A model generated the notes under the pieces. It saw only the letters and a list, made by a program, of their open reading frames with translations, was not told where the DNA came from and made no database searches. A stretch of 20,000 nt of DNA. It comes from an uncultured virus (IMG/VR IMGVR_UViG_3300037461_001375) (lineage: Duplodnaviria > Heunggongvirae > Uroviricota > Caudoviricetes). The stretch lies in IMG/VR virus record IMGVR_UViG_3300037461_001375; one strand, written 5' to 3'. A program made the translations under genes and the position numbers. Positions within the stretch are counted from its first letter, which is position 1, and the number at the start of each line of letters is the position of its first letter. Positions 1 to 19,800 of this stretch are shown one piece after another.

Positions 1-34
1 GCGGACGAACGGCATGGTCACGAGCACAAGTCAT
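1..34 (-). CDS. Partial 5' end of the next tail-tip gene (MTCARDHAVRP...), by synteny possibly an NlpC/P60-family tail peptidase
   Basis: ATG at 34..32 overlaps the hub stop (ATGA) and the frame is open to the window edge. The product is guessed only from the usual DUF2460-DUF2163-NlpC/P60 order. Confidence 0.4.
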   Translation of the reverse strand, partial: MTCARDHAVRP

Positions 35-1698
35 ACGATCGCAACCATAGAATCGTTGGGTGGCGTCAGAGGAAAACCACGAAAGTTTGCAGAGTTGTTA
101 AATTTAGAACCACAGGTTTCCAAACGTTTGTCACAACCCGGATAAAAGTATACCAGAGTTCCATGTTCCGGTTTTGACGGCAGAGGAGAAGCAAGCGTTA
201 CTCGGCCAGCGTCGCTTGATTTTATGGGTCGGCGCAGACCACGCATAAATCCATCACCAATTTCAATGTAGCCCAACGTGAAGAAATCTGCGCGAGAAGG
301 AAAGCCAACAAACTGTGTACTTGGATACAAAACAGTTTGTGTGCTTGAAAAAGTTATTCGCTTTGTCCTGACGTGGGATTCACGAGCAACCCCACACCCA
401 GTGCCGTACAATTCCCAGCCACAACCTGCCCGATACAAATTTCGAGGCGTAGGGGCTTCCAAAAGAGCCAGAACGCTTTTCACTTCCAGCTCTAGCCTAC
501 CGGGACTTGATTCAACAGTATTTACAAAACCGGAAAACCTTTTAAGCGTTCCAGTCATCGGAAGTATTGGGCCGTGTGTTCCAACTTGAGAAATATCAAA
601 AATAACAGGAGACGGAGTTTCCCCTTCTGGAGCAGGCCAAGCAGGATTCGGAGGAGAGAACGCTCTGTATAGGTCTACGGTTGCATTCTCTAAGTAGTGG
701 CCTTTGGCTGCCGCCATGTAGGAAATACCAAGGGATGAAATTGTATCCTCTAGCGTTGGATACATAATCATTTGAAGCGAAGAAACTTCAAGTCCTGTCT
801 TTTCCGAAATCACTGAGCGTTCGACTGGAATGGAAGATTTTACAGAAAACACGATTCCTGTGCGAGCAGCATAATGGCGAAGGATAGTGGTTTGAGACAG
901 AGGATATGGATACACAGCAACATGAGCCATTCGTCCAACAGCTCTGAGGCTTCCAGAGCCACCAAGCTCAAATGTTGGATCCGTATCTAGTAAATGTTCT
1001 TCAATGCCAGAAACTGACTGACAAAGTTCGCCATCCAAGTACAGAGACAGGGTGTATCCATCCCAAGTACAAACGATATGGTGCCAAACACCAGAAGTAG
1101 CCTTAGCAATATTTCCGATCACCTTGTGTGTGGCCGCAAGAGTATCTGCCACAGAAAAATGAAAGCCCCCGTCACTCAGAGGGTCAGTATCCCACCATAG
1201 CTGGAAAAAGCCATTCGTGTTTCTGAGTAACAAGTTATCCAAAGCGCCACTTGGTGCTGAGTTGGCATAGAACCAACACTCATAGGAAAACGCACGAAGA
1301 ACTCTGAATTTTTGTTCTTGTCCTAGAGTGAACGAAGTATTCGGAGAAAGCTTAAAATTCCCGTCAAAGTCAATGCTTGTCTCGGAGGAGTAATCACCAT
1401 CCGAAATTGGGGAGGTTGCTGAATGTTGAATCGTTCCAACTACACTTAGGTTGATTCCTCCCGGTAGCTCATCTGTAGCCCAATCATCAACGTCAGGAAC
1501 CTTGCTCAAGGGATAGTAAGCTATTGGGTGATCCCCGATAATCACATCACGATAGTTTTGACGAATACTGACGTCTCCGGATACGAGCAAAATTTCTTGC
1601 CCTGAAACCAACAAAATGCGATACAAGTCCGCCATGAAGAAATCATTGTAGTCGGATCCTGTAAGTAAGGAAACAAGTTTTCTTGAAGCTAACTTCAT
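31..1698 (-). CDS. Baseplate hub / tail-tip protein (DUF2163 + BR0599-like C-terminus; lambda gpL / GTA hub-like) with an inserted LamG-like domain
   Basis: N-terminal MKLAS..FMADLYRILLVSG, internal TGLEVSSL and P-R-N-L-Y..CGWELYGTGC, C-terminal GCDKRLETCGSKFNNSANFRGFP (typical four-Cys BR0599 tail). Start moved from 1737 to the ATG at 1698, which overlaps the upstream stop (ATGA). Confidence 0.9.
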   Translation of the reverse strand: MKLASRKLVSLLTGSDYNDFFMADLYRILLVSGQEILLVSGDVSIRQNYRDVIIGDHPIAYYPLSKVPDVDDWATDELPGGINLSVVGTIQHSATSPISDGDYSSETSIDFDGNFKLSPNTSFTLGQEQKFRVLRAFSYECWFYANSAPSGALDNLLLRNTNGFFQLWWDTDPLSDGGFHFSVADTLAATHKVIGNIAKATSGVWHHIVCTWDGYTLSLYLDGELCQSVSGIEEHLLDTDPTFELGGSGSLRAVGRMAHVAVYPYPLSQTTILRHYAARTGIVFSVKSSIPVERSVISEKTGLEVSSLQMIMYPTLEDTISSLGISYMAAAKGHYLENATVDLYRAFSPPNPAWPAPEGETPSPVIFDISQVGTHGPILPMTGTLKRFSGFVNTVESSPGRLELEVKSVLALLEAPTPRNLYRAGCGWELYGTGCGVARESHVRTKRITFSSTQTVLYPSTQFVGFPSRADFFTLGYIEIGDGFMRGLRRPIKSSDAGRVTLASPLPSKPEHGTLVYFYPGCDKRLETCGSKFNNSANFRGFPLTPPNDSMVAIV

Positions 1699-2336
1699 GG
1701 CTTGACCGAGATGAGCTTTATTTCGCCAGAGCGCCAAACTTTTGGAAGTAGTTGTGTCACAGTGTATTCGTTTTCGTCGAATCGCACACGGTAGTAGAAG
1801 TCACAGCTTACAGTGATTAGTCCTACGGGGGAGGAAGTAAACGTTATGATTCCATTATTTTCCGTCCAGTTTGTGTTTACAACAGGACCAGTGCCGGGAT
1901 CTACTTTAACAACCAAGCCACCAGCTCCGGGGGTTCCACCATCCTTTATCTCGTAGATTGGCTCGACATTGAGCGAGCCCATTGTTCTTACGATTTGGAA
2001 CTGAGGATTTGTTCCAGAGCCATCCCATGTAGCGATAGGCTGATCAGTCAAAGTTTTATCATGAGTATCTTGAAATAAAAAAGTTTCAAATGAGCCCTTG
2101 TGCAGAGTGTAAAAGCCCAAGATCGCATCAAGCTGACGCCCGAGAGTCGCGTCATCATACAGTACGGGGAAGCGAACCGTGAAGTGCCATACCGGGAAAA
2201 CAACTTCGGCGATTCTCGATTCCCGAAACGAAGATGCACGATGCACCTTGGTTGAGAATTCTGGATACTTTGAGTTGCTCCAAGAAAATTTATTCTCAAG
2301 AGAAACTCCAACAGGTGGAAACACACGATCGCTCAT
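1695..2336 (-). CDS. Distal tail protein (DUF2460 / TIGR02217-like)
   Basis: PEFSTKV..SSFRESR, LGFY..HKGSFETFLFQD and DFYYRVRFDE motifs. Lies directly after the tape measure with an ATGA overlap. Confidence 0.88.
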   Translation of the reverse strand: MSDRVFPPVGVSLENKFSWSNSKYPEFSTKVHRASSFRESRIAEVVFPVWHFTVRFPVLYDDATLGRQLDAILGFYTLHKGSFETFLFQDTHDKTLTDQPIATWDGSGTNPQFQIVRTMGSLNVEPIYEIKDGGTPGAGGLVVKVDPGTGPVVNTNWTENNGIITFTSSPVGLITVSCDFYYRVRFDENEYTVTQLLPKVWRSGEIKLISVKP

Positions 2337-5300
2337 CTTGTTTTTCCAGCAAAATTCCGTGCATCAGGATTAAACTTTCTGTATTGATTCCTAGATGCAC
2401 GAATAATTGCAGATCCATTTTGATTGACAAACTTCTTTACATCCTTGGAGTCCCAAGCTTGAATTATCACAGTCGAAGGTCCAGACTCAGAACGTTGGGT
2501 ATCGTATACATCAAACTCAGGTCGAACGACTGACTTTTCCGTAATCAGTCGACGAAGACCACTGGAGATTTGAGGAGGCAGAACCATCTCGCCCTTGTGG
2601 GCCATGAGCAGAGTGTCCGATTCCAGAAAAGCCCCTCGTCGAGCTAGAGGTGCAGCACTGAAGGAGGAAATCGCAGCAGATACAGCTCCGGCTGCCGCTA
2701 TTGCAAGCGCAGGACCAACATAGGGAATACCAGCAACCGCAGAGGCAGCTTGAGCAATGGCAGCCGACCGTGCAGCTAAAGCTAACGTTATGAAGGCTGT
2801 TGCCAACGCTGCAACGGCAGCAGCAGTAGCCAACAAAACTGGGACTAAAATTGGAATGGTAGCAGTCATAACCGCAGTGAACGCAAGCATCAGAGGCAAG
2901 GCTACTAGGAGGCCCAAAGCCATCAGTGAAAAACCAACTCCTGCCGTAATCGCTGCGAATCCAACAACAAGAGATACGGCAGCAAGGGCTGCCATTTTTG
3001 GAATCAGTGTAAGTGATGTGGTCAAACCAGCAGTAAGCTTTGCAGCCTCTCCAGTTACAAAGGCGACCACTTCGGACATTTTTGCCCCGATAGAAGTTGC
3101 GGCCTCCTCGGCGGCGATTCCCTGACGCACGCCAGAACCAGCGGCCGTAGCAGAGGACTTCGCGCCTTCCCCTGCTACAGTAATGCCAGTTTCGGCAGCC
3201 TTAAAGCCAAACAGAGAAGCAAGCATTTCGCTTTGAGCCAAAGCAGAAATTGCTTGGATCTTCAGCCATCCTATGGCTGCCTGTATGGCTAACTGAGCCA
3301 TGGTGTTTATCCAAGACAAAACTAAGTTCTTCCCTAAGTTTCGGAAGGCATCTTCGAGTGTTAGAGTTCCTGTGATTATCCCTTCGACAGATTGATTAAA
3401 GGTACTCGTTATCGCCGAACTTGTTGCGTCAAAAAGAGAACCAAAGCCTTCAAGGGTAGAGCTAAAATTTTGTAGAGCATCACGTTGGTCTATCCAAGAT
3501 TGACGAGTATCCGCACCAACATTCTTGTTCGCAAAGCTATCCTGAATAGCTTTGTTGTAAGCATCGGTATCGCTTTTAAGCTTTTGAAGACCGTCACCCG
3601 ATTGTCCAAAAACGTCTAAGCTGTAAGCAAGTGACTTGTTTAAGTTTTTCGTTATGTCTTCAAGCTTTTCGTAGCCCTCTTCTTCTTCAATAAGCTTTAA
3701 CTGAACACGTAAAAACTTTAACGAAGTTTCCAAATCTCGAATCTGATCAGCCGTTAGCTTGGCACGATACTGTTTGTCCCTCAAAGCTTTTTCAAACTCG
3801 CCAATAACGGCCCCAACTCGTTCTGAAGTCTTTTCATAAACGTTTAAGCCGTAGCCTATTTCACTCAGCCCTCTAGAGAGTTGATCTGTAGCATTGTCAA
3901 ACGCTCTGAAAGAAGCAGCCCAAGCTTTTACTTGTGCGTCATCAACACCACGAATTTTAGACAGAGCAAGTACGGCATCGGAATATGCAGAAGCCTTTGC
4001 TTCGTTTACATCAAAAATTTCGCCCAGTAAAGTTTGTCGAACTTCAACTTCTCTCAAAGCTTCGTTCAGTCGCTCAAAAACTCTAACGTCTTCCTTGACC
4101 TCAGATTTAAGCTCTTTCTTCGCTTCCTTCAGAGATTCAATTTGATTTGACAAAGCCAAGAATCGTGCTTGAGCATCCTTGACTGCACTGTCACTTAGGT
4201 CTACTAAATTTTCTTCGTAGATTCTCAACTCTTCCGTAACATTACTTAGTTGTTGCTGAAGAGCTTCAAGCTGATTTGTAGCGGGGATGTACGATACTTT
4301 GGAGCCAGCCAATCGACCCTGTTCTTTTGCCGTCAGATTAAGCTGAGTTCTAACGCTATCGAGAGAAGAAGAATATTCATCGCCAGAAACAACCAGAACG
4401 TCCAGCGATCTTCGTAAAGCTTCAACACGAATTCTAGCTGCCCCAGCAGTGTCACCAAATTTAGCCTGAATTAGAGCTGCCTTCGAAAATTCCTTTGACA
4501 GATCTCTAAGAGCATTAGCCGCATCTTGGCTTTGAAGAATATCATTTATGGCTGTGATTATGCCACCAAGTTCAGGATCCTGTAACGCTGCACTCAGGTT
4601 CTCTTCAGACGCTGCAAGTTTATCAATGAGAGTACGACCTGCGGAAGCTAGAGCACCCTCAAGGTCAAAATCTTTTATTACTGATGCTTGGTTTGCGATA
4701 ACTTCAAGCTCTCTACGATACTCACCAAGCGCAACAAGTCCACCTTCGCTCAACTCAAAAGCAGATTCTAAGCTTTGTTTGATCTTACGCGAGCCTCCGG
4801 TAATTTCGTCTACCACGTCAGGCATTATGGATGACATGACGGAAAGAAAAGTTTCTGGGCCGAGCGTAAAAATATCTATGGAAGACAAATTTAGATTTTC
4901 AAGAAAAGATTGCCCCCGACCCATATTCTCAGATAGCTGCTCTAGCGAAGCACTGCCACGAGAAGCGGCCACGCTAAAGTTTTCGTAACCATTAGCTACA
5001 GCATAAAGTTGAAGTTTTAAGTCATAAAGTTGTTCGATTTGGAACTTAGTGTCGGAAGCAAACTGCGAACCAAAAACTATGTGGCGTGCTGCGGTTCTGA
5101 GAAATCGAGTTAGATAGCTGTCATTTTCGTTCACAGCCATACCAAACTCAGCAGCGGCAATTCGTGATCTAACAAGACGCTCTGCAAGTTGCCCAGTTCC
5201 AGTTGTGATTGCAGCAAAAATTGCAGCAAGGCCGGCAAAAACGGCAATGGTCGATAAAACTGCGGCAATACCTGCTGCAATGACAGTAAGACCTGTGGCA

Positions 5301-6625
5301 ACAGCCGCAGCGGCAGCAGCAACGCCACCCATGACAACAACCATAACAGCAAAAGCAGCCGCAAGGATTCCAACTAAAACTGCGAGTGGTAATATTTTTG
5401 CAAAAGATACAGCAAACTTTTTAATAAAACCTTCAGACTGTATTGCAGATTGTTGCATGTCACCGAAAGCAACCAACAGGTCTCGGATACTGTCAACAAT
5501 GGAAGTTAATATCGGAAGGATTTCCAATCCTAGAATAACTTTAAGGCGCTTAAAAGCATTCGACAAACGGGTAACTGAGTTGGTAAATGTTTTGAACTGT
5601 AAATCGGATTCACGAAGTAAGTCTTTTTCAGACTTAATCGCGTCTTCGGCATTTTTAATGTTTTCTCGAAGTTTGTCCATGGCACCTGCTGTATTAAGCA
5701 GAGCCATACGAACACGAACGTTTGTGAAAACGCCACCAAGAGCTTGAAGCGTTGGAAGTGCGCCACTGGCCCGGTGTTGTAAGTTATCCAATCCCTCCAG
5801 AAAATCGATAAAGCCTTTGCTTGGGTCTGAAGCAAAAATTTTCTTAAAAGATTCCCCGGTATCATAGCCAGCAGTCTTAGCGAACAGTTCCAGTTTTGCT
5901 GAAGACTTTGATACTGCCTGAGAAATTTCAGCAAAAACCGACGACATTGCCGAACCACCGGCTTCGACAAGAACACCGGTTTCCGACATTGTTGCAGCTA
6001 GGGCTAAAACAGTGGAGTCTGTAATGCCCACCTGCGAGGCCGCAGCGCCCATCCGAAGCGCCATTCTTAAAATGTCGCGCTCGGTCGTTGCTGTAGTGTT
6101 TCCTAAACGGACGATGGCCGAAGCCAACCGAGGAGTGGATTCCTCCGTACGCCTAAGAACAGTGGTTAGCTTAGCCAACGCTGTTCCGGCTTCCGTTGCG
6201 GAAATGTTTGTAGCTACACCAAAACGAATCATCGTTTCGGTGAGCTTTGGAATGAAGGCTGCCTTTACGTCCAACTGACCAAGAACCGCTGCAACCCCTG
6301 TAATTTCTCGGTTGCTTACTGGCAGATCAGTTGAAAGCCGTAAAAGTTCTCCACGAAATGCTTCGAGGCCAGACTCAGAAAACGAGTCTGCGGTTGTTTT
6401 CTTTACGCGAGCAAATTGTTGCTCAAATCTAGCAGCTTCTGAAACACTGCTCTTTAGCGCAAACGCAATACCAGCAATCGAAGCTGTGCCAGCTACTGCA
6501 ACCTTTCCCAATGGAGTTTCAAGGGCTTTTTTGAAGCTGGTGCCGACTTTCTCAAGCACCTTGAAAATATTTTCAGCTCGTAGGCTTAGCTTGAGAAGTA
6601 ATCCACCAGTAGCTAGAACGCTCAT
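2333..6625 (-). CDS. Tail tape measure protein (TP901-family core)
   Basis: 1430 aa, Ala-rich and helical. N-terminal FEQQFARVKKT..LGQL..LGNTTATTERDI..EAGGSAMS core, coiled-coil middle, two long hydrophobic stretches, C-terminal AHKGEMVLP..IQAWDSKDV. Follows the chaperone genes. Confidence 0.96.
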   Translation of the reverse strand: MSVLATGGLLLKLSLRAENIFKVLEKVGTSFKKALETPLGKVAVAGTASIAGIAFALKSSVSEAARFEQQFARVKKTTADSFSESGLEAFRGELLRLSTDLPVSNREITGVAAVLGQLDVKAAFIPKLTETMIRFGVATNISATEAGTALAKLTTVLRRTEESTPRLASAIVRLGNTTATTERDILRMALRMGAAASQVGITDSTVLALAATMSETGVLVEAGGSAMSSVFAEISQAVSKSSAKLELFAKTAGYDTGESFKKIFASDPSKGFIDFLEGLDNLQHRASGALPTLQALGGVFTNVRVRMALLNTAGAMDKLRENIKNAEDAIKSEKDLLRESDLQFKTFTNSVTRLSNAFKRLKVILGLEILPILTSIVDSIRDLLVAFGDMQQSAIQSEGFIKKFAVSFAKILPLAVLVGILAAAFAVMVVVMGGVAAAAAAVATGLTVIAAGIAAVLSTIAVFAGLAAIFAAITTGTGQLAERLVRSRIAAAEFGMAVNENDSYLTRFLRTAARHIVFGSQFASDTKFQIEQLYDLKLQLYAVANGYENFSVAASRGSASLEQLSENMGRGQSFLENLNLSSIDIFTLGPETFLSVMSSIMPDVVDEITGGSRKIKQSLESAFELSEGGLVALGEYRRELEVIANQASVIKDFDLEGALASAGRTLIDKLAASEENLSAALQDPELGGIITAINDILQSQDAANALRDLSKEFSKAALIQAKFGDTAGAARIRVEALRRSLDVLVVSGDEYSSSLDSVRTQLNLTAKEQGRLAGSKVSYIPATNQLEALQQQLSNVTEELRIYEENLVDLSDSAVKDAQARFLALSNQIESLKEAKKELKSEVKEDVRVFERLNEALREVEVRQTLLGEIFDVNEAKASAYSDAVLALSKIRGVDDAQVKAWAASFRAFDNATDQLSRGLSEIGYGLNVYEKTSERVGAVIGEFEKALRDKQYRAKLTADQIRDLETSLKFLRVQLKLIEEEEGYEKLEDITKNLNKSLAYSLDVFGQSGDGLQKLKSDTDAYNKAIQDSFANKNVGADTRQSWIDQRDALQNFSSTLEGFGSLFDATSSAITSTFNQSVEGIITGTLTLEDAFRNLGKNLVLSWINTMAQLAIQAAIGWLKIQAISALAQSEMLASLFGFKAAETGITVAGEGAKSSATAAGSGVRQGIAAEEAATSIGAKMSEVVAFVTGEAAKLTAGLTTSLTLIPKMAALAAVSLVVGFAAITAGVGFSLMALGLLVALPLMLAFTAVMTATIPILVPVLLATAAAVAALATAFITLALAARSAAIAQAASAVAGIPYVGPALAIAAAGAVSAAISSFSAAPLARRGAFLESDTLLMAHKGEMVLPPQISSGLRRLITEKSVVRPEFDVYDTQRSESGPSTVIIQAWDSKDVKKFVNQNGSAIIRASRNQYRKFNPDARNFAGKTR

Positions 6626-6634
6626 TTAGCACAC

Positions 6635-7003
6635 TCACAAATTTTGCATCGCTTGTTTTCGTCGTTTGTAATCCAAACGAGCTTTGAGCGTATCAATCTT
6701 TGACACATTCTCCTGTGCAGTGGGTTGGGGTTTCCATTGTCGTAGAAGTTTCTTCGGAGACATGCCCTTCTTGACGTGTGGTGATATGATTGTGGCGCAA
6801 ATTAGGGCCCTATCGTGTATCCGATGATCTTCACGCCAGTTGAAGCCCTCTAGCATATCTGAAAGCTCCCCAGGCGTTAAGCGATAAAACTCCCAAGGTT
6901 TCAATGCAAGTGGACCATAGGCAGCAGATTTTGCTTTTTCTATCCACGCTGCAAAGGTTTGGGGGAGACTCAGGTTTGAGTCTCCCCCTTCGGAGGGATC
7001 ACG
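6635..7003 (-). CDS. Tail assembly chaperone C-terminal extension (gpT-equivalent), probably made only as a recoded fusion with 6970..7335
   Basis: The frame is open from 7003 to the stop at 6635, well upstream of the TTG at 6904, which has no Shine-Dalgarno. It is the -1 frame relative to the chaperone. Encodes TFAAWIEKAKSAAYGPLALKPWEFYRLTPGEL, typical of chaperone extensions. Confidence 0.85.
   Translation of the reverse strand, partial: RDPSEGGDSNLSLPQTFAAWIEKAKSAAYGPLALKPWEFYRLTPGELSDMLEGFNWREDHRIHDRALICATIISPHVKKGMSPKKLLRQWKPQPTAQENVSKIDTLKARLDYKRRKQAMQNL
6961..6988 (-). promoter_or_regulatory. Translational recoding signal: G-GGG-GAG slippery run and TGA stop inside a perfect 12-bp hairpin
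   Basis: Minus strand GGGGGAGACTCA-AACC-TGAGTCTCCCCC. The slippery heptamer is 6988..6982 and the stop is 6972..6970. Confidence 0.8.
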
Positions 7004-7335
7004 TCAGATTCCTCACTGTCAGCTTGCTGCACCCGAATCACACCGGAGGAGTTCAGGGCTCGCGAAACAGGCTCCATGAGACCTTCGAGAGATCCGCCCT
7101 TCTCAATGAAGGTTTCGATAAGGTCCCCAACCCGTTCGGGAGTAAGCCTTTTATCCTCCCAACGAAGACCAGCCCAAAGAAGGCCGCGAATGGTGAGGAA
7201 ACCAACGCGGCCTTCTTCAAAAATTTGAGCTGGACCGATCCCGAGGTGTTGTTCGAGATCGGCCAGCGCATTGATGGAAAATCTGAGATTTCGAGGCTTG
7301 TCAAGCAAGTCGAAAGGTACTGCTGGAGATGGCAT
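6970..7335 (-). CDS. Tail assembly chaperone (gpG-equivalent)
   Basis: LDKPRNLRFSINALADLEQHLG..IRGLLWAGLRWEDKRLT motif. Located between the tail tube and the tape measure. AGAGGAG RBS upstream. Confidence 0.9.
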   Translation of the reverse strand: MPSPAVPFDLLDKPRNLRFSINALADLEQHLGIGPAQIFEEGRVGFLTIRGLLWAGLRWEDKRLTPERVGDLIETFIEKGGSLEGLMEPVSRALNSSGVIRVQQADSEESDVIPPKGETQT

Positions 7336-7364
7336 CTGTGTGCTCCTCTAAGTTTTGTTAGATG

Positions 7365-7832
7365 TTAGTAAGACGGATTGTCACCCGAAGCCAGCGTGCC
7401 CTTGGTCAGAGCGCCTACGCCAAGAATCTCGATGCTGATGATTGCGGCGTCGTCGTTAGGACCACCAAGCTCCCACGAAGTGATGATTCCCAAGCCTTCA
7501 AACTTTTCATGCGTGCTCGTTGTTCCAAGCTTGCCTTCAGGAACAAAACGCATATACAAAGTATTGGGAGAAGTGGTTGGGAGAATCTTGGTATACAGGA
7601 GATCTTGAGCCGTATCGCTGTGAATATACAAAGCTTCAGCAGACGCAGACCATTGAGCCAGACCCAAAATGTTATCCTTCCACCCGTCACTCGTGTGGCT
7701 GGAAGCATCGATGGTATCACGTTCAATAGTCAGAGTGACATCTCGAAGCTCTGCAATGTGAGAATAGGGGGCAACCCCATCCGAATCCACATACAGCATC
7801 GCTCGATACCCAGGAATTGCACTCGTAGCCAT
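7365..7832 (-). CDS. Major tail tube protein (TP901-1/GTA-like family)
   Basis: IAELRDVTLTIERDTIDASSHTSDGWKDNILGLAQWSASAE..FEGLGIITSWELGGPNDDAAIISIEILGVGAL. GGGAGG RBS upstream. Confidence 0.93.
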   Translation of the reverse strand: MATSAIPGYRAMLYVDSDGVAPYSHIAELRDVTLTIERDTIDASSHTSDGWKDNILGLAQWSASAEALYIHSDTAQDLLYTKILPTTSPNTLYMRFVPEGKLGTTSTHEKFEGLGIITSWELGGPNDDAAIISIEILGVGALTKGTLASGDNPSY

Positions 7833-10452: not shown

Positions 10453-10486
10453 AGAAGGGTGGCGGGAACGACCCAGCCACCCTTCT
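10453..10486 (-). terminator. Probable intrinsic terminator/attenuator after the head genes
   Basis: Minus strand AGAAGGGTGGC-T-GGG-TCGTT-CCC-GCCACCCTTCT: 11-bp perfect outer stem plus 3 bp inner stem, in an intergenic gap. The U-tract is weak (TTCTT), consistent with read-through. Confidence 0.7.
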
Positions 10487-12842: not shown

Positions 12843-13178
12843 CTAAAATTTGTGTTTATTCAGTGGCACTAAACGGTGCTCGTCGTTTATCGTAATTTCG
12901 CTCTTCTTAGTCTGTTCTACATCTTTCGAATGGGAAAAGCAATCGTTTTGAATGTCAAAAATGGAAGTTGGAATAATTCCTACGTGTAAGCGAAAATCCG
13001 TGTGTCCACAGCGAGAGCACTTCACCTCAAAGTTAAGTTTGCCAACAGGTAGCCACCGAAAAAACAAACGGCGACACTTTCGGCAACGGATGTCTACAAG
13101 TAGGCGCTTTATATCACCTACTTGCTTCAAAGCCGTAAGGATTTGATCCTCAGATAGGTTGGAAAGGTCAAGCGGCAT
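12843..13178 (-). CDS. Mu Com-like zinc-ribbon protein
   Basis: DIRCRKCRRLFFR..FEVKCSRCG matches the Com IRCxxCxxLL..IEIxCPRC pattern. Start placed at ATG 13178, overlapping the end of the protease gene; the ORF track starts at TTG 13208. Confidence 0.8.
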   Translation of the reverse strand: MPLDLSNLSEDQILTALKQVGDIKRLLVDIRCRKCRRLFFRWLPVGKLNFEVKCSRCGHTDFRLHVGIIPTSIFDIQNDCFSHSKDVEQTKKSEITINDEHRLVPLNKHKF

Positions 13179-14937
13179 CTCTCGATTCCCGAAGGATCCG
13201 TTCGCCAAAACCTTGCAAGCTGTAGCCCTTTACAATCCCATTCCGAATCAACTTCCACGAGTTCTCATCCCACACGACGCCGAGAAGCCAGTCTCCGTGC
13301 TTGATGCTCTGAGACCCTCCGGTTACGTCCTTAACAGTCCACTCAGGCCCTCGATAGATGTAGGACTCAACGACCGTCCCATTGCCTCCGGAAGCATTCG
13401 AGTGAAATAGACCAATTTGTCTGCTGTTTGAATTGTATTCCCAAACAGTCTTCTCAAGTTCGCTCTTTGAAATGAAGTCCCGATGCTTGTCCGGAGTTTC
13501 GGCGTGGTAAGCCACACCCAGAGTGAACCGGCGATCGTCTTCGGACTTTTCAACAATGTCGTAGTCCGGAATCCGATTGCCCTCCACCAATACATCGACT
13601 TTGGTTAGCTTCCCTCCAACGTTGGCAATGACGTTTTCAAATTTTTCATCAGCCCAGCTCTTGAGATTGCCCTGATCCGACTGAACGTTGGAAACAATCG
13701 CGAACCAGCCAAATTCGGAATCCTTCATCAGATCAAGGAATGCCGATGTTGCTTCAGACTTGATGGTGAAGGATGCGTAGTTGGGAGTTGCGAATCGAAG
13801 CTGCCATTCACCATCAAAAAAAGTTTCAAATCGGGAGAAGAAGGATAGGGGGGCATAGTTGCCCTTTGTCTTCCTAACAAAACTTCTTTCCGACGTCATC
13901 CAAAACGAAGGGGCCAAATCCTTTTGAATGCAAGCCGAAATACCACTTGTCAGGAATTTAGCATCGCATTGAAAAGGCAAGTGATAATGCTTTCCCGTTC
14001 CAAATCTAAGAAAACAACTTGGTTCTGACTTCTCGATCAGCTCGTTTGGATTCATGGAGCACTGAGAGTTTGAGATGTCAGAGAAGATGGCTTGCACTCT
14101 AAAAGATTGGGGTTCTGATCCGCACTCAAACTCTTCGAGTGGATTCCAATAGTTTGTGGCAGAATTTGCTTCTTGAATGCTCTTTGTAAGCCACTCGGTA
14201 GCGGCTTCGAGATCAGAGGCTACAGACTTGGGAATGTCCACAGACCAAATCTCCCAAGCCTTTCCCATGTGCTTCAAGTTCAGAGTCACACCATCTTTCG
14301 TTACAAGGCTCGCTTTTTCCATGCAACCGGATTCTGATTCCTCCTCTTCCTCCTCTTCCTCCTCGTCAGACATTTTTGCCTTCTTCTTTTTTCGATTCGG
14401 AGGGGAATCAGACTTCAGAAACGTGAATCGGTCTTCGTGTGTTTCCCATCGAGGAAGAGAAAGATCGGGGGGTTGCTCTTCCTCAACGGAAGCGGAGACT
14501 TCCGCAAGTAAATCTTGAGGCATCCCACAAAACACACAGTTGGGATCCACGTCCTTGCTTACCGTATTCAAGTGGCAGACAGAACAAACTACCGTTGTTC
14601 CTGCCTTCTTGATGAGGAACTGTTCGGCTTTTTCAAGTTTTTCCTTGGTGGCACCCGATCTTAGGATCGGAGGAACGGGGCGCTTGGGATTCACAGAACG
14701 AAAAGCGCGAAGAATCCTTTGCTTTACGCTAGCCATGCCACCCGAAGGAATCTGAACTCGGTTCCCTCTGAAGCCTCCCGGACTCAGCGCAGCTAGAGCC
14801 ATGCCAACTTGCCTTGTCGTTACACCACTTGTTGGCGTGCTCCAAAGCCTGAGCTTCCAAGTAGAAGGTTGGTTGGGATCAGGAACGTAAGCGTAAGCTC
14901 GGGACGGAAATTTCAATCCATTTTCAGTTTTTGTCAT
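13168..14937 (-). CDS. Multidomain protein with a C-terminal XkdF-type prohead serine protease
   Basis: aa ~464-580: KSEDDRRFTLGVAY..PDKHRDF..IGLFH..VVESYI..GDWLLGVVW..WKLIRNGIVKGYSLQG (candidate His512 and Ser573). About 460 aa of extra N-terminal domains. Lies between portal and capsid. Confidence 0.9.
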   Translation of the reverse strand: MTKTENGLKFPSRAYAYVPDPNQPSTWKLRLWSTPTSGVTTRQVGMALAALSPGGFRGNRVQIPSGGMASVKQRILRAFRSVNPKRPVPPILRSGATKEKLEKAEQFLIKKAGTTVVCSVCHLNTVSKDVDPNCVFCGMPQDLLAEVSASVEEEQPPDLSLPRWETHEDRFTFLKSDSPPNRKKKKAKMSDEEEEEEEEESESGCMEKASLVTKDGVTLNLKHMGKAWEIWSVDIPKSVASDLEAATEWLTKSIQEANSATNYWNPLEEFECGSEPQSFRVQAIFSDISNSQCSMNPNELIEKSEPSCFLRFGTGKHYHLPFQCDAKFLTSGISACIQKDLAPSFWMTSERSFVRKTKGNYAPLSFFSRFETFFDGEWQLRFATPNYASFTIKSEATSAFLDLMKDSEFGWFAIVSNVQSDQGNLKSWADEKFENVIANVGGKLTKVDVLVEGNRIPDYDIVEKSEDDRRFTLGVAYHAETPDKHRDFISKSELEKTVWEYNSNSRQIGLFHSNASGGNGTVVESYIYRGPEWTVKDVTGGSQSIKHGDWLLGVVWDENSWKLIRNGIVKGYSLQGFGERILRESRDAA

Positions 14938-19542: not shown

Positions 19543-19703
19543 GTACATTTTTGTGCGCCGACCGTCATGTATGTGACGCAGCGACCCCCCGGAACGACAA
19601 AAAATGTCACCAGCCCGGCCAAAAATGTACGATTGACAAACATTTTTGAACACGGTGACAAATTTTGTCGTACATTTTTGGACACGGTGACAAAGTTTGT
19701 CAC
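19543..19703. repeat. ACATTTTTG boxes in both orientations plus two GTGACAAA-N-TTTGTC palindromes
   Basis: GTACATTTTTG at 19543 and 19670, inverted copy at 19620-19630. ~30-bp direct repeat at 19640 and 19672. Perfect GTGACAAA-G-TTTGTCAC at 19687-19703. Confidence 0.9.
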
Positions 19704-19707
19704 GCCG

Positions 19708-19795
19708 TGAGACACGGTTGAGACACGAATGAGACACGTGAGACACGTGAGACAGGCTGTGAGACACGGCTGAGACACGTGAGACACGTGTCTCA
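19708..19795. repeat. Iteron-like TGAGACA(CG) array ending in a 16-bp palindrome
   Basis: Eight direct copies at 19708, 19719, 19730, 19739, 19748, 19760, 19771 and 19780; TGAGACACGTGTCTCA at 19780-19795. Confidence 0.97.
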
Positions 19796-19800
19796 TACGG

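Follow-up and report, generated by a model that had tools for sequence, protein, structure and literature searches.

The DNA analysed here, a stretch of 20,000 nucleotides (nt) from an uncultured virus of the Caudoviricetes (IMG/VR record IMGVR_UViG_3300037461_001375) that is referred to as the window, carries on its minus strand the tail assembly chaperone gene G and an extension of this gene in the -1 reading frame, designated T. The long form of the chaperone is very probably made by -1 frameshifting at one or both of two motifs in the overlap of G and T, C CCU CCG and G GGG GAG, and the former motif in combination with a hairpin over the stop codon of G is tentatively put forward as the main route to the fusion protein. 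This reading is built on the order of the genes, the -1 relation of their frames, the hairpin with its positional homology to stems in related junctions and the in-register recurrence of both motifs among the relatives, all of which were directly observed. The site represents a well-known kind of recoding event in a non-canonical form. It comprises the following features, in which aa stands for amino acids and ORF for open reading frame.

6970..7335, minus strand: G, tail assembly chaperone gene, from ATG 7335 to TGA 6972-6970, 121 aa (ORF list)
6635..7003, minus strand: T, -1-frame extension, from CGT 7003 to the stop codon 6637-6635 (three-frame translation)
6991..6997, minus strand: candidate slip site B, C CCU CCG, in register (P-site codon CCU, A-site codon CCG), upstream of the stem by 2 nt
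6982..6988, minus strand: candidate slip site A, G GGG GAG, in register (P-site codon GGG, A-site codon GAG), within the 5' arm of the hairpin
6961..6988, minus strand: hairpin with 5' arm GGGGGAGACTCA (6988-6977), loop AACC (6976-6973) and 3' arm TGAGTCTCCCCC (6972-6961)
6970..6972, minus strand: TGA stop codon of G, with which the 3' arm begins, in the same anchored alignment column as the TAG of the related locus L014

The G/T chaperone pair

The original prediction, which had been made from the letters of the window alone, proved exact on a re-check of the sequence with respect to the letters, the coordinates, the 12-bp stem, the AACC loop and a CAAACCT repeat with a distance of 17 nt. The frame of T is -1 relative to that of G and opens directly after the -1-frame TGA at 7006-7004. 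Both frames overlap at 7003-6973, and any slip must fall inside these 31 nt. On the minus strand, the 3' end of G reads AAG GGG GAG ACT CAA ACC TGA, and the C-terminal residues of the G protein are K-G-E-T-Q-T in the window versus K-G-A-E-T-T in L014. The first ATG, GTG or TTG codon of T is the TTG at 6904, which is located downstream of the conserved F..W motif, and the 5' end of T is devoid of a start codon of its own. The -1 reading of the window retains the G-G-D motif of homologous junctions, and T can be aligned with the -1 extensions of the relatives via the conserved F..W and LTP.E motifs. A -1 slip at either motif is predicted to yield a fusion of 233 aa and a ribosomal hop a product of 227 aa, sizes that were counted from the translation and agree with the approximate values proposed originally. 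According to the codon usage, no rare codons are present at either slip motif.

The tail genes of the window, all of which are encoded on the minus strand, are arranged in the order tail tube (7832-7365), G (7335-6970), T (to 6635) and tape measure (6625-2333). G matched the families phrog_2115 (tail protein; E 1.3e-18) and phrog_183 (tail chaperone; E 2e-4), and its match to the Pfam family Phage_TAC_11 reached 22.2 bits, under the cut-off of 27.8. T matched phrog_7377 with an E value of 2e-11 and the Pfam family Phage_TAC_6 with 18.3 bits, under the cut-off of 23.4. A search of the PDB sequences with the G profile revealed nothing meaningful, the best E value being 0.15. In a relative, the Bacillus phage Silence, a joined tape measure chaperone is annotated. 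By position, frame relation and homology to the relatives, G and T are classified as a predicted chaperone pair of the G/GT type, not as a clean member of a Pfam family. Position, frame, profile matches and relatives are in agreement with the earlier assignment as a G/GT-type pair with a -1 extension.

The hairpin and its counterparts in homologous junctions

The arms of the hairpin are complementary in 12/12 nt and are separated by 4 nt. The structure folds with -25.3 kcal/mol and a z score of -6.2, with 0/200 dinucleotide shuffles being as stable; the z score in a 111-nt context is -5.4, and the inner 8 bp alone fold with -11.4 kcal/mol. The hairpin is beyond chance. It exists as a single copy and is unchanged in the nearest virus record (G001), and is therefore not a dispersed repeat. 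The window contains 13 inverted repeats of at least 10 nt within 60 nt, and the hairpin is not the sole strong one among them. A pseudoknot was ruled out, as the loop comprises merely 4 nt, and just a long-range 5-bp contact with GGGAG near 6894 was detected when pairing partners for the freed 3' arm were sought. A search of IMG/VR for the exact 28-nt hairpin yielded 0 matches and no near-identical relatives for the analysis of covariation. Two other DNA assemblies and two assemblies from RNA libraries, one of which includes a contig that bridges the hairpin, show no insertion, deletion or variant at 6955-7003, at the level of contigs, where minor variants and transcript ends are invisible. 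The sole differences from those assemblies are located at 6589-6630 and 6872. The comparison is uninformative on covariation or on heterogeneity in the length of the G-run, and one RNA run without a contig over 6932-6980 proves nothing.

Relatives of the junction were gathered from IMG/VR, from GTDB genomes and from JGI/ENA metagenomes. The resulting census comprises 104 unique junctions, the window included, that differ in the 90 nt around the stop codon of G; 71/151 and 36/116 of the relatives found in two collections were left out of it, and the relatives, to which the L numbers refer, represent related metagenomic contigs and not independent samples. Among 5.8 billion proteins, the closest G protein is 67% identical and all others are at most 48% identical. 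A -1 extension of at least 80 aa, or one running off the contig, is present at 100 of the 104 junctions, and a canonical in-register heptamer of the type X XXY YYZ, C CCU UUN among others, lies within the overlap at 84 of them; the heptamers of the first 70 junctions include, among others, G GGA AAC (26), A AAA AAC (9), C CCA AAC (7) and C CCU UUG (5). Because of these canonical heptamers and -1 extensions, the homologous junctions are considered to use, in all probability, ordinary -1 frameshifting.

For the alignment, all junctions were fixed at the conserved W codon belonging to the F..W motif, where the T domain starts; with this anchor, the alignment of the window with L013 (G protein 67% identical) and L014 (47%) is gap-free. 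L013 displays the heptamer A AAA AAC, followed after 6 nt by a stem with a G7 block in the 5' arm that is aligned exactly to the G5 block of the window, and the 3' arm is C-rich in both. Likewise, L014 displays C CCA AAC, 6 nt and a stem starting with GGGGCGGAGAC, and the G stop codons of L014 and the window share one alignment column. The same order of a heptamer, 6 nt and a GCGGAGG...CCUCCGC stem, with the G stop codon in or beside the stem loop, characterizes a subgroup comprising L001, L011, L018, L020, L021, L023, L025, L027, L036, L063 and L064. The consensus stem deduced from an alignment of 14 sequences consists of 10 pairs, 5 of which show compensatory changes. Folding of 93 nt, performed without a shuffle control, revealed a helix of at least 8 pairs enclosing or touching the G stop codon at 38/70 junctions, and z scores below -2 were obtained for the 52 nt before the W codon at 19/67 loci versus 3/67 for a control stretch 115 nt upstream and 1/67 for one 60 nt downstream (Wilcoxon test against the two control stretches, p 4.6e-5 and 2.1e-4). 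The stem over the G stop codon is accordingly common among the homologous junctions, not universal.

Since the stem sits 6 nt after a canonical heptamer in the two closest relatives, the hairpin of the window is interpreted as a stronger version of an inherited 3' stimulatory stem, which is situated just 3' of the slip site in the relatives. The canonical heptamer is lost in the window, where GTG ATC is aligned with the CCA AAC of L014. The original prediction had invoked an unusual, self-sequestering hairpin, a notion that is not needed when the structure is positionally homologous to stems after canonical heptamers in the closest relatives. It had further suggested that the stem and the duplication of codons be looked for in homologous loci, and the stem turned out to be common and to carry compensatory changes, whereas the duplication is not conserved.

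A second perfect inverted repeat of 12 nt is located inside G (minus strand 7165-7225), with arms at 7217-7206 and 7188-7177 and 17 nt between them. It extends to about 20 pairs with -38.3 kcal/mol and a z score of -8.3, and spans codons of the conserved EEGRV...IRGLLWAG region. This repeat is not conserved, as L013 has a z score of +1.0 and values below -2 were found at the same place in 4/70 loci. The public runs listed for positions 6700-7400 of the window are 16 wetland metagenome runs, of which 11 are recorded as RNA libraries. G and T are covered by contigs from RNA libraries, in which a carry-over of DNA is possible, so that expression is not demonstrated by them.

Two candidate slip motifs in the overlap

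No X XXY YYZ heptamer was found in the 31-nt overlap of the window, which harbours the two candidate motifs at a distance of 2 nt from each other. Within the overlaps of the 104 junctions, CCCT occurs 30 times in register versus 7 and 8 times in the other two registers (10/57/3 in the 150 nt upstream) and GGGGGAR 8 times in register versus 0 and 2 times, counts that overstate the number of independent events, the loci being related contigs, and that to this extent weaken the case made here. The same C CCU CCG heptamer is found in register in L024 and in L086, the latter of which has a canonical heptamer besides. Among the 20 junctions that lack a canonical heptamer, C CCU N is the sole candidate in 7 (L016, L024, L039, L045, L083, L085 and L091) and G GGG GAR in 4 (L031, L126, L128 and L174), an ATG over the G stop codon is present in 6, none of these features occurs in 2, and C CCU N and G GGG GAR stand together in the window. 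The GGGGGAR class is present in register in 7 relatives, and the overlaps of L031 (10 nt) and L126 (22 nt) contain G GGG GAG as the sole motif detected by the screen. At the position that is aligned to the G-run of the window, L013 reads G GGG GGG. The recurrence of C CCU N points to a class of P-site tetramer slips, as judged from the sequences, that is overlooked by standard heptamer searches. In the relatives with C CCU N only as well as in the window, the proline codon is CCT in every case, with a C before it.

The two motifs differ in the structure that follows them. The 48 nt after C CCU CCG fold with -25.3 kcal/mol and a spacer of 2 nt in the minimum free energy (MFE) structure. In L083, L085, L086 and L091, C CCU NNN is likewise followed by hairpins of -21.4 to -22.6 kcal/mol, and MFE spacers of 0-2 nt after canonical sites were counted in 36/54 cases among the homologous junctions. 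The 48 nt after G GGG GAG fold with -3.9 kcal/mol, i.e. there is no structure, and the next hairpin is about 30 nt away. Shine-Dalgarno (SD)-like sequences stimulate frameshifting at a distance of 10-14 nt from the slip site, and none is present in the window sequence at this distance upstream of G GGG GAG.

In the favoured reading, a programmed -1 slip within the 16-nt sequence C CCU CCG AAG GGG GAG (6997-6982) would generate the G-T fusion of 233 aa. When the P site holds CCU and the A site CCG, the stem would begin at about +9 from the first P-site base. Considering the position at which the helicase activity of the ribosome unwinds messenger RNA, the outer two to three pairs of the stem would already be open, and the G5:C5 block would be placed at the mRNA entrance, where it would have to be unwound. 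The P-site tRNA-Pro would move from CCU to CCC, a better match, and the A-site tRNA-Pro from CCG to UCC, with a G-U pair, a G-C pair and a wobble mismatch. Ribosomes that have passed C CCU CCG would then meet G GGG GAG as a second, unstimulated slip site of the GGGGGAR class. That ribosomes slip at all, the motif that they would use and the geometry on the ribosome are what we infer from the sequence comparisons.

C CCU CCG is preferred over G GGG GAG because of the placement of the hairpin, and several points weigh against this choice. C CCU CCG does not conform to the canonical X XXY YYZ pattern, its re-pairing in the A site is poor at the first and third positions, and no experimental precedent for it was found in a literature search. 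The usual spacer is described as 5-9 nt (PMC5009743) versus 2 nt at this site, so that the outer two to three pairs must be open. Moreover, G GGG GAG re-pairs better, has a precedent for its class and may be the real or main site.

Alternative explanations

A -1 frameshift that takes place solely at G GGG GAG (6988-6982) is a possibility to be taken seriously, if a somewhat doubtful one. The original prediction had located the slip at this motif, which is credible as a slip site, as it stands alone in the screened overlaps of L031 and L126 and the GGGGGAA class is known (PMC10885494, PMC5506516). The tRNA-Gly would shift from GGG to GGG and the tRNA-Glu from GAG to GGA with a central G-U pair. 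Re-pairing by G-U is described in the PRFect publication, in which GGGGGAA is reported across about a thousand annotated chaperone frameshifts of SEA-PHAGES (PMC10885494), and the use of GGGGGAA has been predicted for the corynephage phi16 (PMC5506516). The register bias of GGGGGAR (8 versus 0 and 2) and its position as the sole motif in L031, L126, L128 and L174 are in favour of this explanation, as are the G GGG GGG aligned in L013 and the arrangement in L031 and L126, where the G-run is partly in the 5' arm of a stem with the stop codon in the loop. The hairpin would be no stimulator under these circumstances, because its 5' arm would be inside the ribosome at the time of the slip; it would be an inherited relic, or would pause upstream ribosomes, mask the SD-like G-run or contribute to RNA stability. 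With the 5' arm occupied, however, the downstream fold amounts to merely -3.9 kcal/mol, in contrast to -12.8 to -18.8 kcal/mol in the other relatives with GGGGGAR, and the strongest short-loop hairpin of the window would be left without a role in recoding. GAG in place of GAA as a named slip site was not found in one literature search. A slip site inside the hairpin, as proposed originally, is thus one of two readings; the prediction had missed C CCU CCG 2 nt upstream, for which the hairpin would act as an ordinary 3' stimulator. The codons on which the more distant alternatives depend are listed below.

6973..6975, minus strand: ACC, last sense codon of G and proposed take-off codon of a hop (sequence)
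6956..6958, minus strand: ACC in the T frame, proposed landing codon, encoding the Thr of T-F-x-x-W (sequence, translation)
6971..6973, minus strand: CTG in the T frame overlapping the G stop codon, aligned with the ATG (ATGA) of some relatives, with an SD-like GGGGGAG 8 nt upstream

A ribosomal hop, which had been offered originally as the other route to the fusion, is very improbable. The peptidyl-tRNA-Thr would leave ACC 6975-6973 with TGA in the A site and land on ACC 6958-6956, thereby skipping 17 nt and giving the product of 227 aa, and the hairpin re-folding around the take-off codon would drive the hop, the landing codon being situated 2 nt after the stem. The geometry is coherent, and a few per cent of product would be enough. 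The matched ACC codons lie within the 7-nt direct repeat CAAACCT (6978-6972 and 6961-6955, 17 nt from start to start), the stop codon directly follows the take-off codon, and matches of two codons in the -1 frame are rare, at 0.86% of the window positions and 1/104 junctions, namely the window only; the direct repeat is to this extent mildly unusual. Low-level stop-hops between matched codons are described for synthetic constructs, and for the terminase of the Streptomyces phage Hau3 a short hop has been suggested (PMC5009743). The comparative data lend no support to the hop, however. At 14/104 junctions, versus a chance baseline of 16% of the window positions, the last sense codon reappears within 11 codons in the -1 frame; the matched last codon is absent in L013 and L014, and the 17 nt are no insertion relative to either of them. 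Both ACC codons encode residues that are kept by relatives, i.e. the C-terminal Thr of G, which also occurs in L014, L001 and L128 as ACG, and the Thr of T-F-x-x-W in L013, which shares the ACC TTY codon pair of the window. At take-off the ribosome would cover the entire 5' arm (-13 to -2). The landing site lies in a C-rich region and has no SD-like sequence in front of it, and the -1 frame upstream of this site is open and retains the G-G-D motif. A basic KKYK-like stretch is missing 25-30 residues before the take-off site, residues 91-96 of G being SRALNS, and the requirement for a nascent peptide is known from gene 60 only (PMC5009743). In addition, AAACCT is fairly common, with 8 copies on the minus strand of the window. 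A literature search for translational bypassing in tail assembly chaperones retrieved a general review only. If true, the hop would represent the first bypass to occur naturally in a tail chaperone gene, corresponding in minimal form to that of T4 gene 60. A third copy of AAACCTT is located at 6901-6895 (minus strand), 59 nt downstream of the second, in the TTG AAA CCT TGG of T.

Two further explanations were considered. It is highly unlikely that T is translated separately from CTG 6973-6971, a codon overlapping the G stop (CTGA), through termination and reinitiation, with the hairpin masking this site until it is opened by a ribosome on G. Such a start finds a parallel in L068, L072, L074, L081 and L076, where the T ORF begins at an ATG of its own within an ATGA overlap with the G stop codon, an overlap that is also present in L051; the -1 frame of L068, L072, L074 and L081 is closed just upstream and GGAGG precedes the ATG, and L074 has a 17-pair hairpin with the SD sequence in the 5' arm and the ATG in the loop. 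The ATG of the relatives and the CTG of the window are equidistant from the conserved W, and the next residue is Ser in both. CTG, however, is a very weak start codon in bacteria, and unlike in the ATGA relatives the -1 frame of the window is open for 10 codons upstream of it, with two in-register slip motifs and the G-G-D motif. The canonical frameshift heptamers at 84/104 junctions are likewise not in line with a separate start of T. It is extremely unlikely that the hairpin represents a transcription terminator or an element of RNA processing or stability without any role in recoding, for which its GC-rich sequence, its high stability and the presence of other strong inverted repeats in the window, including the one inside G, might be quoted. 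A T-run follows the hairpin on neither strand, it is not listed by the terminator scan, and there is no Rfam match for it. One contig from an RNA library bridges it from 6648 to 7183, as contig evidence for which DNA carry-over is possible, and its position relative to the slip sites is conserved in relatives.

In the four relatives L068, L072, L074 and L081, T looks separately translated by coupling and not fused to G. Transcriptional slippage in the window was rejected, as the run of five G is short and a nascent hairpin would act only after the stop codon has been transcribed. Poor re-pairing would be expected of a -1 slip at CAA ACC, or at ACC while TGA occupies the A site, and both were discarded for this reason.

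Gene neighbourhood and other features of the window

According to the ORF list and the PHROG and Pfam profile matches, the minus strand of the window encodes a complete head and tail module. The genes that flank the chaperone pair in the tail part of this module are as follows.

7365..7832, minus strand: major tail (tube) gene, 155 aa (phrog_1407, E 8.9e-20; Pfam Phage_tail_2, 45 bits)
2333..6625, minus strand: tape measure gene, 1430 aa (tape measure PHROGs down to E 4.7e-56; Pfam PhageMin_Tail, 54 bits)

The tape measure gene is followed downstream by genes of the distal tail and the hub (DUF2460, Phage_BR0599) that resemble those of gene transfer agents (GTA). These GTA-like tail tip genes extend over 31-2336 (minus strand) and comprise a DUF2460 gene followed by the gene of a hub protein with Phage_phiJL001_Gp84_N and Phage_BR0599 domains, into which a lectin-like Laminin_G_3 domain is inserted at residues 137-285. 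In the region 13168-14937 (minus strand), an ORF of 589 aa combines an N-terminal part matching phrog_19463 with a C-terminal S78 serine protease domain of the XkdF-like type (residues 461-581; Pfam Peptidase_S78_2, 75 bits); this ORF also has weaker PHROG matches, which carry the labels methyltransferase or RNA ligase. An inverted repeat of 14 nt, 93% complementary and with a 6-nt loop, is present at 10453-10486 in the gap between the ORFs 11169-10510 and 10430-9801, and may represent an intergenic hairpin or a terminator within the head-tail module. A cluster of inverted repeats at 19619-19799, at the edge of the structural module, contains a perfect 14-nt pair (19619-19632 and 19668-19681) and repeated palindromic units of TGAGACACGTG, and may be a regulatory or operator region.

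Implications and comparison with known recoding systems

Programs for the prediction of frameshifts still rely on the X XXY YYZ pattern, and 20 of the 104 junctions considered here are without such a heptamer. Three solutions recur among the latter, i.e. C CCU N with a strong hairpin following, the G GGG GAR motif, and a T gene that is separate and overlaps G by ATGA. The window joins the first two of them side by side and next to a very stable hairpin. It may accordingly serve as a test case for the questions of whether a P-site tetramer and a strong, close stem can substitute for a heptamer, whether tandem weak sites add up, and what becomes of a stimulatory stem when the slip site moves into it. 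With respect to genome annotation, the predicted 233-aa fusion is worth annotating although standard motif searches miss the site.

Sites for -1 frameshifting with a 3' stem-loop are familiar from dnaX and from insertion sequence (IS) elements. The window shares with the bacterial sites of this kind, and with stimulators having a lower helix that begins nearly at the slip site, which are described in the cited review (PMC5009743), the stable stem-loop after the slip site and, as predicted, the partial opening of the lower helix during decoding, and differs from them in the non-canonical slip motif and the spacer of 2 nt to the base of the stem. From the bypass in T4 gene 60 (PMC5009743) the window differs in several respects: the gap measures 17 nt in the window versus 50 nt in gene 60, no nascent-peptide signal is evident, no SD-like element precedes the landing site and the matched codons are not conserved in the relatives. 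A resemblance exists to the GGGGGAA ('fivetwo') sites of chaperone genes from actinobacteriophages and corynephages (PMC10885494, PMC5506516), which have an in-register G5 run followed by A in the same gene pair and the same proposed movement of tRNA-Glu to GGA via a G-U pair. In contrast to these sites, the window contains GAG and not GAA, its G-run forms the 5' arm of a hairpin and is without structure downstream, and a second candidate motif is located 2 nt upstream.

The G/GT system of phage lambda uses a -1 frameshift at G GGA AAG (PMC5009743). The window resembles it in the order of the major tail gene, G, the -1-frame T and the tape measure gene, in the predicted location of the slip near the end of G and in the formation, here predicted, of a short product and a rarer, C-terminally extended fusion. 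This likeness is one of order and frame, the profile matches being those to phrog_2115 and phrog_183 together with the sub-threshold matches to Phage_TAC_11 and Phage_TAC_6. Unlike lambda, the window is devoid of an X XXY YYZ heptamer and carries a hairpin of -25 kcal/mol over the stop codon of G. In the homologous junctions of L001, L011, L013, L014, L023, L036 and L063 the core stem is preceded, at a distance of about 6 nt, by a heptamer (G GGA AAC, A AAA AAC or C CCA AAC) that was lost in the window; in all of these junctions, however, as in the window, the stem occupies the same place relative to the F..W motif of T, its 5' arm is rich in G, its 3' arm is rich in CUCC and the stop codon of G is positioned in or next to the loop.

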